Shown here piece after piece: positions 6,353 to 63,968 of a stretch of 64,000 nucleotides of DNA. Position 1 is the stretch's first letter. Each line of letters opens with the position of its first letter. Source of the DNA: Escherichia coli (GTDB lineage Bacteria > Pseudomonadota > Gammaproteobacteria > Enterobacterales > Enterobacteriaceae). The notes under the pieces are model-generated. The model searched no databases and was not told where the DNA came from. It saw only the letters and a list, made by a program, of their open reading frames with translations. The stretch lies in assembly GCF_044647545.1 (NCBI RefSeq), contig NZ_CP172818.1. One strand, given 5' to 3'. The position numbers and the translations under genes are program-made.

Positions 6353-7019
6353 AATAAAGAAAACCTTTTAACGCCAAAACAAAAAAGTATTTCGTCGCGT
6401 AGTGTAAGCGATCACTTATTATATTTCCACAAAATTTAATCTATTTACAGTCCTGCGCGAGATTATTTCAGCTGTTATTTTCTGAAACTCTCAGAATAAT
6501 TTCAAGATTATATATTAGCCATTTTGATGAGTAATTTCGGTTATTTGTGAGCAGAGCGGCGCTCTCTGCTCGCTAATTCCGCAAGCCTGACAAAACAAAA
6601 ATGAATAAAAATGCAATTTAACCGAATAAATGGAAACACCCCTCACTGGTGCTTTCTGCTGTCAATGTACATTTTCTGGCATAAAAAATGCTGAAAATGA
6701 CCCGGTCACGACATACACCGAATTCTCTACGCTTATAGCGTTACCTCACCCCCAAACCTTCATGAGTGATAATAAAGGTAAACACATATCCAATTGATTT
6801 AATTAAAAATAAATTATATCGGCATGTAAAAATCCACAATGTACAAAAAACGCGCCGTTACGGAATATTTTATCTACAAAAACAGATTAAATAAAAATTT
6901 TTCACTAATTGATTAGTCATAGCCAGCGATATACGCTATGCGAAAATGCAGATGGCAATGAGATCCACTGCTTTCACCTCCATTAACATCCCATTACGCT
7001 TTTATTAAGGAGCATTAGC

Positions 7020-12323: not shown

Positions 12324-12582
12324 GGGGGTTATTTTCAAAAATATCACTACCCGCTGCAGGGAAATAATTCCCGCCAAATAGCTTTATATCACGCAAATAA
12401 TTTGTGGTGATCTACACTGATACTCTGTTGCATTATTCGCCTGAAACCACAATATTCAGGCGTTTTTTTGCTATCTTTGACAAAAAATATCAACTTTTCT
12501 CGATTTGCTCTCAGCCCTTATATCATGGGAAATTCCGGCGATTTGCTCACATCAATATTCATGCCACATTTGCCATCAGGGG

Positions 12583-33414: not shown

Positions 33415-34952
<1,538 letters not shown>

Positions 34953-40014: not shown

Positions 40015-40030
40015 TGGCACGCAATCTGCA
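40015..40030 (+). promoter_or_regulatory. sigma54 (-24/-12) promoter of norVW
   Basis: TGGCAC-gcaat-cTGCA with the canonical GG-N10-GC spacing, about 48 bp upstream of the norV ATG. Confidence 0.8.
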
Positions 40031-45117: not shown

Positions 45118-45645
45118 TTAGAACATCAGCGCCGTACGGCGACGTTTTTCTGCGCTCAGTTGTTCAAGTTTATTACGATCGACACAAATCAGCGCATGGG
45201 TCGGGCAAGCCGCCATACACGCCGGGCCGTCTTCACGATGGTTACAGAGGTCGCATTTATTGGCTTCGGCTTTGTCAGCCCGTACGTTAAGCCCTGCGCC
45301 GCTGTTGCGAATCACCGGACGTACCACCACTTCCATCGCGCCATACGGGCAAGCCACAACGCAGGTTTTGCAACCAATGCAACGTTCCTGCATCACATGA
45401 ACAAACCCTTTATCACGGCTGATAGCACCATTCGGGCAGACGTTAGCGCACGGTGCATCTTCACACTGACGGCAGACTGTTGCCGTAGAAATGTTCACAC
45501 CTTTAATGACATGGATTCGCGGTAAAAAAGTTTCCGGGGTCAGCGATGCACAGTCCTGATTCTCCTGATGAGAAACCACGCACGCCACTTCACAGGTACG
45601 GCAACCAATACATTTACTCGCGTCAGCAATGATGAAACGGTTCAT
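45118..45645 (-). CDS. hydN: 4Fe-4S ferredoxin-type electron transfer protein HydN
   Basis: ORF track frame 45118..45660; start placed at ATG 45645 ([22 protein letters not shown]...). Confidence 0.93.
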
Positions 45646-45793
45646 CAAATTCTCCAGCAATGACAGTTAATGCGCCGATACATTCACAAATCATGCCAGT
45701 TTTTAATTTACTGTTATTTAAAGAAATTAAATTCTGTAATGCAGGAAAAACGATGTCATCGACACTAGTGACGATGACATGTGTTGACAATGT

Positions 45794-57401: not shown

Positions 57402-57525
57402 CAGGCATTCCTCAGGTGATTGTCATTTTTGACGAAAACATGCCGATGAAATGTCATTTTCGACACTCATCGACACGCCCATCCCCAAACAGGCGTAACG
57501 CCTGCAAAACGGGCAAAGCCTCAGC

Positions 57526-57987
57526 TCATGCTGCCGGGCTTTGTCCCTTTACCAGTTGGCTTAAATTCACCGGCACATTGTTTTCAATGGCGGTGTATAA
57601 GCTGTCGTAAACGCCAGCGATTTTTTCGAGATAGTGTTCCAGAACCTGTTCGCGATCGCGGATGTTGACCTTGCCATCAATCATGCCGTCAATGCTCAGT
57701 TGCGCCTGCGCAATCCGCTGTTTGTCTTCACCCTCTTTCGTTTCGACGTAATACTCGATGGTGTGGCTGTTAAAGCCATCCGCCAGGGTGACGTAAATAC
57801 GAAAATGTTCAAAAAGGACGAAACAGAGTTCTTTGTCCGGCGCGCAGCTCATGGCGTGATGCAGGCGCGCTTTCGATAACGTGATCCCCTGAACCAGCGA
57901 ATTGCAGTAGATGTGCCACTGGTCCTGTAGGCGACGATGCCGCTGTGCGATGTAATCGGCTTTCTCGCTTATTTCCCAAATAGTCAT
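57526..57987 (-). CDS. hycA: formate hydrogenlyase regulatory protein HycA
   Basis: ORF track 57526..57987, 153 aa. Confidence 0.95.
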   Translation of the reverse strand: MTIWEISEKADYIAQRHRRLQDQWHIYCNSLVQGITLSKARLHHAMSCAPDKELCFVLFEHFRIYVTLADGFNSHTIEYYVETKEGEDKQRIAQAQLSIDGMIDGKVNIRDREQVLEHYLEKIAGVYDSLYTAIENNVPVNLSQLVKGQSPAA

Positions 57988-58022
57988 TGTCAGGTTACCC
58001 GTTTAACAGAGATGCCAGCTTT

Positions 58023-58040
58023 AAGCATTTTTTATGCCAA
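58023..58040 (-). promoter_or_regulatory. candidate sigma54 promoter of the hyc operon
   Basis: Minus strand reads TGGCAT-aaaaaa-TGCT with GG-N10-GC spacing, about 35 bp upstream of the hycA start; hyc is known to be sigma54/FhlA-dependent. Confidence 0.6.
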
Positions 58041-58152
58041 CTTTTAATTCATTGTTATTAAAACGATTTTTAAGCTAAAGATGAATTTCGTCGCCGTGTC
58101 GACGTGTCATTTCGACATCATCGACATTATTCACCGCAGGGATAATCAACAC

Positions 58153-58168
58153 TGGCACAATTATTGCT
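58153..58168 (+). promoter_or_regulatory. sigma54 promoter of the hyp operon
   Basis: TGGCAC-aatta-TTGCT, about 30 bp upstream of the hypA ATG. Confidence 0.75.
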
Positions 58169-58198
58169 TGTAGCTGGCAATAGTTAATGGGAGGCGAT

Positions 58199-58549
58199 AT
58201 GCACGAAATAACCCTCTGCCAACGGGCACTGGAATTGATCGAACAGCAGGCCGCAAAACACGGCGCAAAACGCGTAACTGGGGTCTGGCTCAAAATTGGC
58301 GCATTTTCTTGTGTCGAAACCAGCTCTCTTGCCTTTTGTTTTGATCTGGTTTGCCGCGGCAGCGTGGCGGAAGGTTGTAAACTGCACCTCGAAGAACAAG
58401 AGGCCGAATGCTGGTGTGAAACATGCCAACAGTATGTGACGCTACTGACCCAGCGCGTCCGCCGCTGTCCACAGTGTCATGGCGACATGCTACAAATTGT
58501 GGCAGACGACGGTTTACAGATTCGGCGGATAGAAATAGACCAGGAGTGA
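58199..58549 (+). CDS. hypA: hydrogenase nickel insertion protein HypA
   Basis: ORF track frame 58187..58549; start placed at ATG 58199 (MHEITLCQ...) with GGGAGG RBS; CxxC...CxxC zinc motif. Confidence 0.95.
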   Translation: MHEITLCQRALELIEQQAAKHGAKRVTGVWLKIGAFSCVETSSLAFCFDLVCRGSVAEGCKLHLEEQEAECWCETCQQYVTLLTQRVRRCPQCHGDMLQIVADDGLQIRRIEIDQE

Positions 58550-61889: not shown

Positions 61890-63968
61890 ATGTCATATAC
61901 ACCGATGAGTGATCTCGGACAACAAGGGTTGTTCGACATCACTCGGACACTATTGCAGCAGCCCGATCTGGCCTCGCTGTGTGAGGCTCTTTCGCAACTG
62001 GTAAAGCGTTCTGCGCTCGCCGACAACGCGGCTATTGTGTTGTGGCAAGCGCAGACTCAACGTGCGTCTTATTACGCGTCGCGTGAAAAAGACACCCCCA
62101 TTAAATATGAAGACGAAACTGTTCTGGCACACGGTCCGGTACGCAGCATTTTGTCGCGCCCTGATACGCTGCATTGCAGTTACGAAGAATTTTGTGAAAC
62201 CTGGCCGCAGCTGGCCGCAGGTGGGCTATACCCCAAATTTGGTCACTATTGCCTGATGCCACTGGCGGCGGAAGGGCATATTTTTGGTGGCTGTGAATTT
62301 ATTCGTTATGACGATCGCCCGTGGAGTGAAAAAGAGTTCAATCGCCTGCAAACATTTACGCAGATCGTTTCTGTCGTCACCGAACAAATCCAGAGCCGCG
62401 TCGTTAACAATGTCGACTATGAGTTGTTATGCCGGGAACGCGATAACTTCCGCATCCTGGTCGCCATCACCAACGCGGTGCTTTCCCGCCTGGATATGGA
62501 CGAACTGGTCAGCGAAGTCGCCAAAGAAATCCATTACTATTTCGACATTGACGATATCAGCATTGTCTTACGCAGCCACCGTAAAAACAAACTCAACATC
62601 TACTCCACTCACTATCTTGATAAACAGCATCCCGCCCACGAACAGAGCGAAGTCGATGAAGCCGGAACCCTCACCGAACGCGTCTTCAAAAGTAAAGAGA
62701 TGCTGTTGATTAATCTCCACGAGCGGGACGATTTAGCCCCCTATGAACGCATGTTGTTCGACACCTGGGGCAACCAGATTCAAACCTTGTGCCTGTTACC
62801 GCTGATGTCTGGCGACACCATGCTGGGCGTGCTGAAACTGGCGCAATGCGAAGAGAAAGTATTTACCACTACCAATCTGAGCTTACTGCGCCAGATTGCC
62901 GAACGTGTGGCAATCGCTGTCGATAACGCCCTCGCCTATCAGGAAATTCATCGTCTGAAAGAACGGCTGGTTGATGAAAACCTCGCCCTGACCGAGCAGC
63001 TCAACAATGTTGATAGTGAATTTGGCGAGATTATTGGCCGCAGCGAAGCCATGTACAGCGTACTTAAACAAGTTGAAATGGTGGCGCAAAGTGACAGTAC
63101 CGTGCTGATCCTCGGTGAAACTGGTACAGGTAAAGAGCTGATTGCCCGCGCGATCCATAATCTCAGTGGGCGTAATAATCGCCGCATGGTCAAAATGAAC
63201 TGCGCGGCGATGCCTGCCGGATTGCTGGAGAGCGATCTATTTGGTCATGAGCGTGGGGCTTTTACCGGTGCCAGCGCTCAGCGCATTGGTCGTTTTGAAC
63301 TGGCGGATAAAAGCTCACTATTCCTCGATGAAGTGGGCGATATGCCGCTGGAGTTACAGCCGAAGTTGCTGCGTGTATTACAGGAACAGGAGTTTGAACG
63401 TCTTGGCAGCAACAAAATCATTCAGACGGACGTACGTTTAATTGCCGCGACTAACCGCGATCTGAAAAAAATGGTCGCAGACCGAGAGTTCCGTAGCGAT
63501 CTCTATTACCGCCTGAACGTATTCCCGATCCACCTGCCGCCACTACGCGAGCGTCCGGAAGATATTCCGCTGCTGGCGAAAGCCTTTACCTTCAAAATTG
63601 CCCGTCGTCTGGGGCGCAATATCGACAGCATTCCTGCCGAGACGCTGCGCATCCTGAGCAACATGGAATGGCCGTGCAACGTGCGTGAGCTGGAAAACGT
63701 CATTGAGCGCGCGGTATTGCTAACACGCGGCAACGTGCTGCAGCTGTCATTGCCAGATATTGCTTTACCAGAACCTGAAACGCCGCCTGCCGCAACGGTT
63801 GTCGCCCAGGAGGGCGAAGATGAATATCAGTTGATTGTTCGCGTGCTGAAAGAAACCAACGGCGTGGTTGCCGGGCCTAAAGGCGCTGCGCAACGTCTGG
63901 GGCTGAAACGCACGACTCTGCTGTCACGGATGAAGCGACTGGGAATTGATAAATCGGCATTGATTTAA
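61890..63968 (+). CDS. fhlA: formate hydrogenlyase transcriptional activator (sigma54-dependent)
   Basis: ORF track frame 61854..63968; start placed at ATG 61890 (MSYTPMSDLGQQGLFD...); AAA+ sigma54-interaction domain with GAFTGA motif. Confidence 0.95.
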   Translation: MSYTPMSDLGQQGLFDITRTLLQQPDLASLCEALSQLVKRSALADNAAIVLWQAQTQRASYYASREKDTPIKYEDETVLAHGPVRSILSRPDTLHCSYEEFCETWPQLAAGGLYPKFGHYCLMPLAAEGHIFGGCEFIRYDDRPWSEKEFNRLQTFTQIVSVVTEQIQSRVVNNVDYELLCRERDNFRILVAITNAVLSRLDMDELVSEVAKEIHYYFDIDDISIVLRSHRKNKLNIYSTHYLDKQHPAHEQSEVDEAGTLTERVFKSKEMLLINLHERDDLAPYERMLFDTWGNQIQTLCLLPLMSGDTMLGVLKLAQCEEKVFTTTNLSLLRQIAERVAIAVDNALAYQEIHRLKERLVDENLALTEQLNNVDSEFGEIIGRSEAMYSVLKQVEMVAQSDSTVLILGETGTGKELIARAIHNLSGRNNRRMVKMNCAAMPAGLLESDLFGHERGAFTGASAQRIGRFELADKSSLFLDEVGDMPLELQPKLLRVLQEQEFERLGSNKIIQTDVRLIAATNRDLKKMVADREFRSDLYYRLNVFPIHLPPLRERPEDIPLLAKAFTFKIARRLGRNIDSIPAETLRILSNMEWPCNVRELENVIERAVLLTRGNVLQLSLPDIALPEPETPPAATVVAQEGEDEYQLIVRVLKETNGVVAGPKGAAQRLGLKRTTLLSRMKRLGIDKSALI

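Follow-up and report, generated by a model that had tools for sequence, protein, structure and literature searches.

The 211-bp interval between hycA and hypA is a control region of the formate regulon that is already known and serves two divergent operons, and both its two back-to-back sigma-54 promoters and its FhlA block, a cluster of TCGAC repeats, have already been described. It is likely that this proximal block acts first of all as the enhancer of the hyc operon and, with less certainty, that the main enhancer of the hyp operon is a second, distal array located between hycA and hycB. The accepted picture of hyc-hyp control is left unchanged by the present results. They refine it by a conserved core within the block (58100-58126), a conserved IHF-like core (58045-58057) and the second FhlA array (57421-57475).

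The hyc-hyp region sets how hydrogenase 3 and the Hyp maturation proteins are expressed in response to formate, and it is a target in hydrogen-production engineering. As expression of hypABCDE-fhlA also sets the level of FhlA, the region is part of a textbook autoregulated sigma-54 circuit. The formate regulon of K-12 was reportedly worked out in the Böck laboratory, by Lutz in 1990, Schlensog and Hopper in 1994 and Leonhartsberger in 2000. In the following, sigma-54 occupancy, the dependence on FhlA and IHF and the FhlA matrix are taken from published papers, whereas the sequence elements were identified here, together with their departure from chance, their conservation and their geometry. 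All positions refer to the window, i.e. the whole stretch of 64,000 nucleotides of Escherichia coli DNA that was analyzed. The features of the locus are as follows:

57421-57475, distal FhlA array in the hycA-hycB gap, composed of TGTCATTTTTGACG (57421-57434) and TGTCATTTTCGACACTCATCGACA (57452-57475)
57526-57987, minus strand, hycA, formate hydrogenlyase regulator, first gene of the hyc operon (annotation)
57988-58198, hycA-hypA intergenic control region, 211 bp, between the annotated hycA and hypA
58024-58039, minus strand, P_hyc, TGGCAT-N5-ATGCT, predicted start at about 58013 (sequence; OS27 in K-12)
58045-58057, minus strand, IHF-like core, TAATTCATTGTTA, the reverse complement of WATCAANNNNTTR with one mismatch
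58089-58126, proximal putative FhlA enhancer (UAS) with its conserved core at 58100-58126 (six YGWCR half-sites, matrix, conservation)
58153-58168, plus strand, P_hyp, TGGCAC-N5-TTGCT, predicted start at about 58179 (sequence; OS28 in K-12)
58199-58549, plus strand, hypA, first gene of hypABCDE-fhlA (annotation)
61890-63968, plus strand, fhlA, after hypE, annotated as formate hydrogenlyase transcriptional activator

The hycA-hypA interval and its sigma-54 promoters

According to the annotation, positions 57988-58198 comprise the whole gap between hycA and hypA, no more and no less. The annotation also places fhlA last in the hyp operon, behind hypE, as had been proposed from the sequence; its coordinates were obtained by shifting the annotation by the offset from the genome-match search. 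A 1.3-kb query around the region showed 100% identity with many E. coli chromosomes. With this query the region was found in 5425 of 5426 complete genomes, where hycB, hycA, hypA and hypB are annotated. Compared with K-12 MG1655, only four of the 211 bp differ. One difference (58034) affects the hyc -24 hexamer, which reads TGGCAT in the window strain and TGGCAC in K-12 MG1655, and the remaining three (58050, 58063 and 58064) are all located in the A/T-rich spacer. No differences occur in the TCGAC block and in P_hyp. The K-12 region represents the same locus: its FhlA half-site block and its distal array are identical to those of the window, the same two sigma-54 sites are found 128 bp apart, and there is no structural difference.

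The original prediction described one sigma-54-type element facing each operon. The element facing hypA, TGGCAC-N5-TTGCT at 58153-58168, is present exactly as described. Its sequence (TGGCACAATTATTGCT) is a perfect match to TGGCAC-N5-TTGCW with the GG and GC doublets 10 bp apart, and it is a sigma-54 promoter confirmed in EcoCyc. The element facing hycA had been placed at 58023-58040, which is correct within one base, as it runs on the minus strand from 58039 to 58024 (TGGCATAAAAAATGCT). The form given for it, TGGCAT-N6-TGCT, is better written as TGGCAT-N5-ATGCT. In this notation it becomes visible that the diagnostic GG-N10-GC spacing is retained, with the -24 GG at 58038/58037 and the -12 GC at 58026/58025. 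The sigma-54 pattern TGGCAYNNNNNWTGCT occurs three times in the window, compared to 0.17 expected occurrences.

Both promoters are supported by binding data. ChIP-seq of sigma-54 in E. coli MG1655 yielded the sites OS27 (hycA, TTGGCACAAAAAATGCT, minus strand) and OS28 (hypA, CTGGCACAATTATTGCT, plus strand), both of which are marked as promoters confirmed by experiment in EcoCyc; with starts predicted 19 bp beyond the motif centre, transcription would begin 26 bp ahead of hycA and 20 bp ahead of hypA (PMC4591121). The motif centres of OS27 and OS28 are 128 bp apart, and the same spacing separates the centres in the window (58032 and 58160). As OS27 is a confirmed promoter in EcoCyc, the objection that the minus-strand element might not be the hyc promoter does not hold. 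In Salmonella LT2 the same promoter pair was detected by ChIP-chip, here 114 bp apart, and the sigma-54-dependent transcripts of the hyc/hyp pair were credited to FhlA, in agreement with microarray data (PMC3844500). Furthermore, a gSELEX peak (2848650) is located in the same spacer (PMC8743547). The -24/-12 doublets of both promoters are conserved in 80 Enterobacteriaceae sequences, in which those of P_hyc appear as GCA and TGCCA. The stretches 58013-58039 and 58153-58179 form a 27-nt inverted repeat with 78% complementarity that reaches the start-site region GCTGGCA. The extension of this repeat beyond -12 is not conserved outside Escherichia.

Further sigma-54-like elements were observed in the window. 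The 16-mer TGGCATAAAAAATGCT, identical to the hyc -24/-12 element, is also present at 6677-6692 (plus strand) in the alaE-stpA region; the ChIP-seq tables of sigma-54 sites in E. coli have no entry with this sequence for that copy. Additional elements are located at 12551-12566 (minus strand) and at 40015-40030 (plus strand). The sequence TGGCATGAATATTGAT corresponds to OA04, a site published as 'intergenic antisense', and TGGCACGCAATCTGCA to the norV promoter site OS25 (both PMC4591121). A sigma-54-like candidate within hycA, TGGCACATCTACTGCA (57918 to 57903, minus strand, in hycA sense orientation), was rejected. It overlaps the conserved codons Trp-His-Ile-Tyr-Cys and is not an independent feature, because its GC doublet is retained only in sequences that encode the Cys by TGC, which reflects a coding constraint.

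The proximal block and the distal array

The TCGAC-repeat block, which had been announced at about 58090-58127, is real and denser than expected by chance. The quoted sequence gtcgccgtgtcgacgtgtcatttcgacatcatcgaca spans 58090-58126, whereas the base at 58127 is a t. The block can be described by a self-complementary pentamer, YGWCR (for instance TGTCA, CGACA or CGTCG), copies of which start at positions 58089, 58097, 58100, 58105, 58113 and 58122. These half-sites follow one another at start-to-start distances of 3-9 bp, which are 8 and 9 bp within the conserved core. Six YGWCR pentamers within 40 bp constitute the window maximum and the densest cluster of the 64 kb; none of 200 shuffles reached this value, for a pentamer that was defined after inspection of the sequences. 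Pairs of the form YGWCR-N4-YGWCR occur 14 times in the window, compared to 5.3 expected. The density scan nevertheless has independent value, because it recovered the enhancer of hydN as the second-densest cluster. The features of the hydN locus are:

45118-45660, hydN open reading frame
45698 to 45683, minus strand, hydN-hypF sigma-54 promoter, an exact match to the hydN ChIP-seq motif of K-12 (PMC4591121)
45750-45793, hydN half-site cluster, abutting the end of ascG, second-densest YGWCR cluster of the window

The hydN cluster is located 52-95 bp upstream of the hydN -24 T and belongs to an independent FhlA-dependent operon, the third FhlA-dependent unit in the window. In K-12, the half-sites of fdhF lie about 70-90 bp upstream. 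Like that of hyc, the enhancers of hydN-hypF and fdhF are thus YGWCR clusters 50-95 bp upstream of a sigma-54 -24 element, and they belong to the same regulon with the same activator. In contrast to the hyc-hyp block, which is situated between two promoters and has an IHF-like core on one side only, the hydN-hypF and fdhF promoters are unidirectional.

The window was also analyzed for FhlA sites with the 14-column count matrix given in Table 2 of PMC7658346, covering both strands and about 128,000 positions. This matrix is said to be built on sites that were characterised by Schlensog in 1994 and Leonhartsberger in 2000 (PMC7658346). Scores of at least 16 were obtained at only two positions, of which one belongs to the block and the other to the hycA-hycB gap. 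The best match of the window is TGTCGAAAATGACA at 57452-57465 in the distal array with a score of 17.48 (maximum possible 17.61), followed by TGTCGATGATGTCG at 58113-58126 with 16.19; since the matrix was derived from E. coli sites, these matches are partly circular. The motif scan that had been suggested as a check therefore places the second-best match to the published FhlA matrix in the block. Rebuilding the 13 training sites of the matrix by integer programming on K-12 sequences was infeasible. The third-best match (34493-34506) is located within an open reading frame of 319 amino acids and is probably due to chance. A review gives a 16-bp FhlA consensus, CATTTCGTACGAAATG (PMC4987338). In a Hamming scan with this consensus the block matched 9 of 16 positions and many unrelated sites scored higher, so that it does not discriminate. 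Secondary statements describe binding of FhlA upstream of fdhF and hyc (PMC11291172), and footprint coordinates of FhlA for hyc/hyp were not found in the open full-text literature. The matrix score, the half-site density and the conservation together support the view that the block is an FhlA-type enhancer and a putative FhlA-binding region, in line with the plausible UAS of the original prediction.

Two other interpretations of the block have to be considered. It is hardly credible that the TCGAC repeats are chance palindromic words, or a hairpin or terminator-like element, without any role in activator binding. A simple terminator scan does pick CGTCGCCGTGTCGACG with a T-containing tail at 58089-58104, but this one site compares to 1.1 sites expected in shuffled sequences, which is chance level, and an Rfam search gave no family match. 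Moreover, the block is located upstream of both predicted starts, so it is transcribed by neither of the sigma-54 promoters. Chance words are at odds with the pentamer density, which was unmatched in the shuffles, with the recurrence of a 22-nt module 653 bp away, and with a cross-genus conservation that falls on the half-site positions and not on the spacers. Conservation and recurrence effectively refute this interpretation. Very improbable, too, is binding of the block mainly by another regulator, either HyfR or ModE, which has been described as a secondary activator of hyc. HyfR is a paralogue of FhlA, so it might recognise similar sites. However, the half-site pattern is common to the enhancers of hydN and fdhF and the hycA-hycB array, that is to the FhlA regulon, and the FhlA-site matrix scores the block near its maximum. 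As for ModE, no A/T-rich palindrome of the ModE type was identified inside 58089-58126.

The module that recurs is the 22-nt core of the block (58105-58126). It is repeated at 57452-57475 on the same strand with two insertions of 1 nt. Allowing up to three edits, no other match to this core was found in the window; with four edits a single unrelated match appeared (20133), and shuffled sequences gave none at up to four edits. Within the distal array, GTCATTTTTGACGAAA is invariant in 78 sequences, although the remainder of the spacer between hycA and hycB is variable (67 to 146 bp). The distal array scores higher and is better conserved than the proximal block, and its conservation might partly reflect its place 10-30 nt before the ribosome-binding site of hycB. 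Schlensog et al. in 1994 and later reviews from the Böck laboratory reportedly located FhlA binding in the hycA-hypA spacer as well as between hycA and hycB, and assigned the latter to hyp. The distal array at 57421-57475 would accordingly be the hyp UAS published by Schlensog et al. in 1994. In the length-variable part of the hycA-hycB spacer, just after hycA, a hairpin (CAGGCGTAACGCCTG, 57490-57504) is present, which occurs only in Escherichia.

Conservation across Enterobacteriaceae and the IHF-like core

Species-representative genomes were scanned with HycA, which yielded 80 loci (L009-L088) from Escherichia, Salmonella, Citrobacter, Enterobacter, Klebsiella, Raoultella, Kluyvera, Kosakonia, Lelliottia and other genera. 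All 80 loci harbor a divergently oriented hypA, with a spacer of 191-226 bp. The alignment of these spacers contains several conserved islands. Near P_hyc these are the hyc -12/-24 doublets and an adjoining TAA-N4-TTGAT, followed by the island of the block, GAC.TGTCATTTCG.CA...YGWCA (58100-58126), and, towards hypA, by the hyp -24/-12 element and the Shine-Dalgarno sequence of hypA. The core at 58100-58126 is kept in Salmonella, Klebsiella and about 20 other genera, and the conservation that had been named as a test of the prediction is therefore observed. Conservation is poor in the left third of the block (58087-58099), which some genera possess and others lack as a unit of 10-12 bp. The cross-genus footprint thus picks 58100-58126 as the bases of the block that matter.

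Read on the opposite strand, the conserved TAA-N4-TTGAT corresponds to the IHF core WATCAANNNNTTR. In the window this core matches 12 of 13 positions, is located between the enhancer and P_hyc and is adjoined by an A/T-rich tract (58058-58078). Among 79 orthologues, the core is found at a fixed offset of 5-6 bp from the hyc -24 element, perfectly in 26 and with one mismatch in 29. These 55 of 79 orthologues with at most one mismatch compare to a background of 50 matches in 128,000 positions, and a perfect core occurs only once on both strands of the whole 64 kb. The sequence at 58045-58057 therefore displays the pattern of a candidate IHF site, comprising the core, the A/T-rich 5' flank and the position between enhancer and promoter. 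In 1994, Hopper et al. reportedly located an IHF site at hyc, in the stretch that separates the enhancer from the promoter.

IHF-assisted sigma-54 promoters of the glnHp2, pspA and nifH type have the order enhancer, IHF site and promoter. The order common to such promoters, in which the enhancer is followed by an IHF bend and the -24/-12 element, can be read from the sequence here as well. The hyc promoter differs from this type in that its IHF core is only 5-6 bp away from the -24 element and, in the copy of the window, carries one mismatch. IHF is listed as an activator of both hyc and hyp (PMC2636881).

Assignment of the arrays to the two promoters

The block had been proposed as a UAS common to both operons. 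With respect to the hyc start, the block is located at about -85 to -113, its conserved core at about -87 to -113 and the full set of six half-sites at -76 to -113. The distance from the block to the hyc -24 T, which is downstream of it, is 59-87 bp, and the IHF-like core and the A/T tract are situated in between. With respect to the hyp start, the core is located at about -53 to -79, which is 27-53 bp from the hyp -24 T, with nothing in between. An enhancer position of about 80-130 bp upstream of the start, which is regarded as canonical, is thus found for P_hyc but not for P_hyp. The distal array (57421-57475) is located about 700 bp upstream of P_hyp. As the geometry is canonical for hyc only and the block lies close to hyp, the claim of a shared UAS is only partly supported. 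For hyc it is supported by the canonical position and the IHF-like core; for hyp, with the block at -53 to -79, it is not supported, and the second array at 57421-57475 had been missed. The proposal of one UAS for the two operons is unproven and probably incomplete. Based on the geometry and on the earlier literature, we infer that the proximal array serves hyc and the distal array hyp.

In a different interpretation, the single block is a bidirectional FhlA enhancer of both P_hyc and P_hyp, and the distal array is accessory or serves something else. This is possible but doubtful. The block sits between two FhlA-dependent sigma-54 promoters and adjoins P_hyp in 80 of 80 species. In the genera compared, the array is separated from the hyp -24 element by 46-48 or 57-59 bp only, and from the hyc -24 element by 44, 55-58 or 66-67 bp, and this quantised spacing is compatible with a face-of-helix constraint towards both promoters. 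However, the indels could equally have arisen when entire half-site units, themselves spaced 8-10 bp apart, were gained or lost. The block is also asymmetric, with a canonical position and an IHF core for hyc alone, and it is nearer to P_hyp than the corresponding enhancers are at hydN, fdhF or hyc. In addition, a second and better conserved array exists, and the literature reportedly assigns hyp to this distal array. Geometry and quantised spacing are thus compatible with one enhancer for both promoters but provide no proof.

Between genera, the hyc-hyp spacer differs in length by steps of about 10-12 bp, both to the left and to the right of the FhlA array (L009-L088). These spacing counts rest on a handful of independent indel events. 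Steps of about 11 bp fit a helical-phase constraint towards both promoters, which is suggestive, not decisive; either helical phasing or a turnover of half-site units may lie behind them. The restricted spacing between the block and the hyp -24 element could mean helical phasing and a real role of the block at hyp.

With the proximal block as hyc enhancer and the distal array as main hyp enhancer, the region would function as follows. In the resting state, sigma-54 RNA polymerase would occupy the back-to-back promoters P_hyc (leftward) and P_hyp (rightward) as an inactive closed complex. FhlA, encoded at the end of the hyp operon, would bind the array of YGWCR half-sites at 58089-58126. By analogy, the formate-bound AAA+ oligomer of FhlA would contact the closed complex at P_hyc via a DNA loop. 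A bend induced by IHF and centred near 58060 would aid the formation of this loop, and ATP hydrolysis would open the promoter. P_hyp also depends on FhlA, with 57421-57475 most likely as its main enhancer, and a contribution may come from the proximal block, whose distance to the hyp start is only about 50-80 bp.

A further variant, in which the proximal array is bidirectional, phase-locked to both promoters and cooperates by looping with the near-identical array of the same orientation 653 bp away, is unlikely. If true, one FhlA assembly bracketing hycA, the gene of an FhlA antagonist, would control hyc and hyp together.

Back-to-back sigma-54 promoters are also known from zraP/zraSR, where they are about 130-150 bp apart, similar to those of hyc and hyp. 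The sites of ZraR (HydG) reportedly lie between the divergent zraP and zraSR promoters and are common to both (Leonhartsberger, 2001). In contrast, the hyc-hyp array is off-centre, 81 bp from the motif centre of hyc and 47 bp from that of hyp, and has a second array 650 bp away. The motif centres of zraP and zraS are 154 bp apart (PMC4591121, Table 1).
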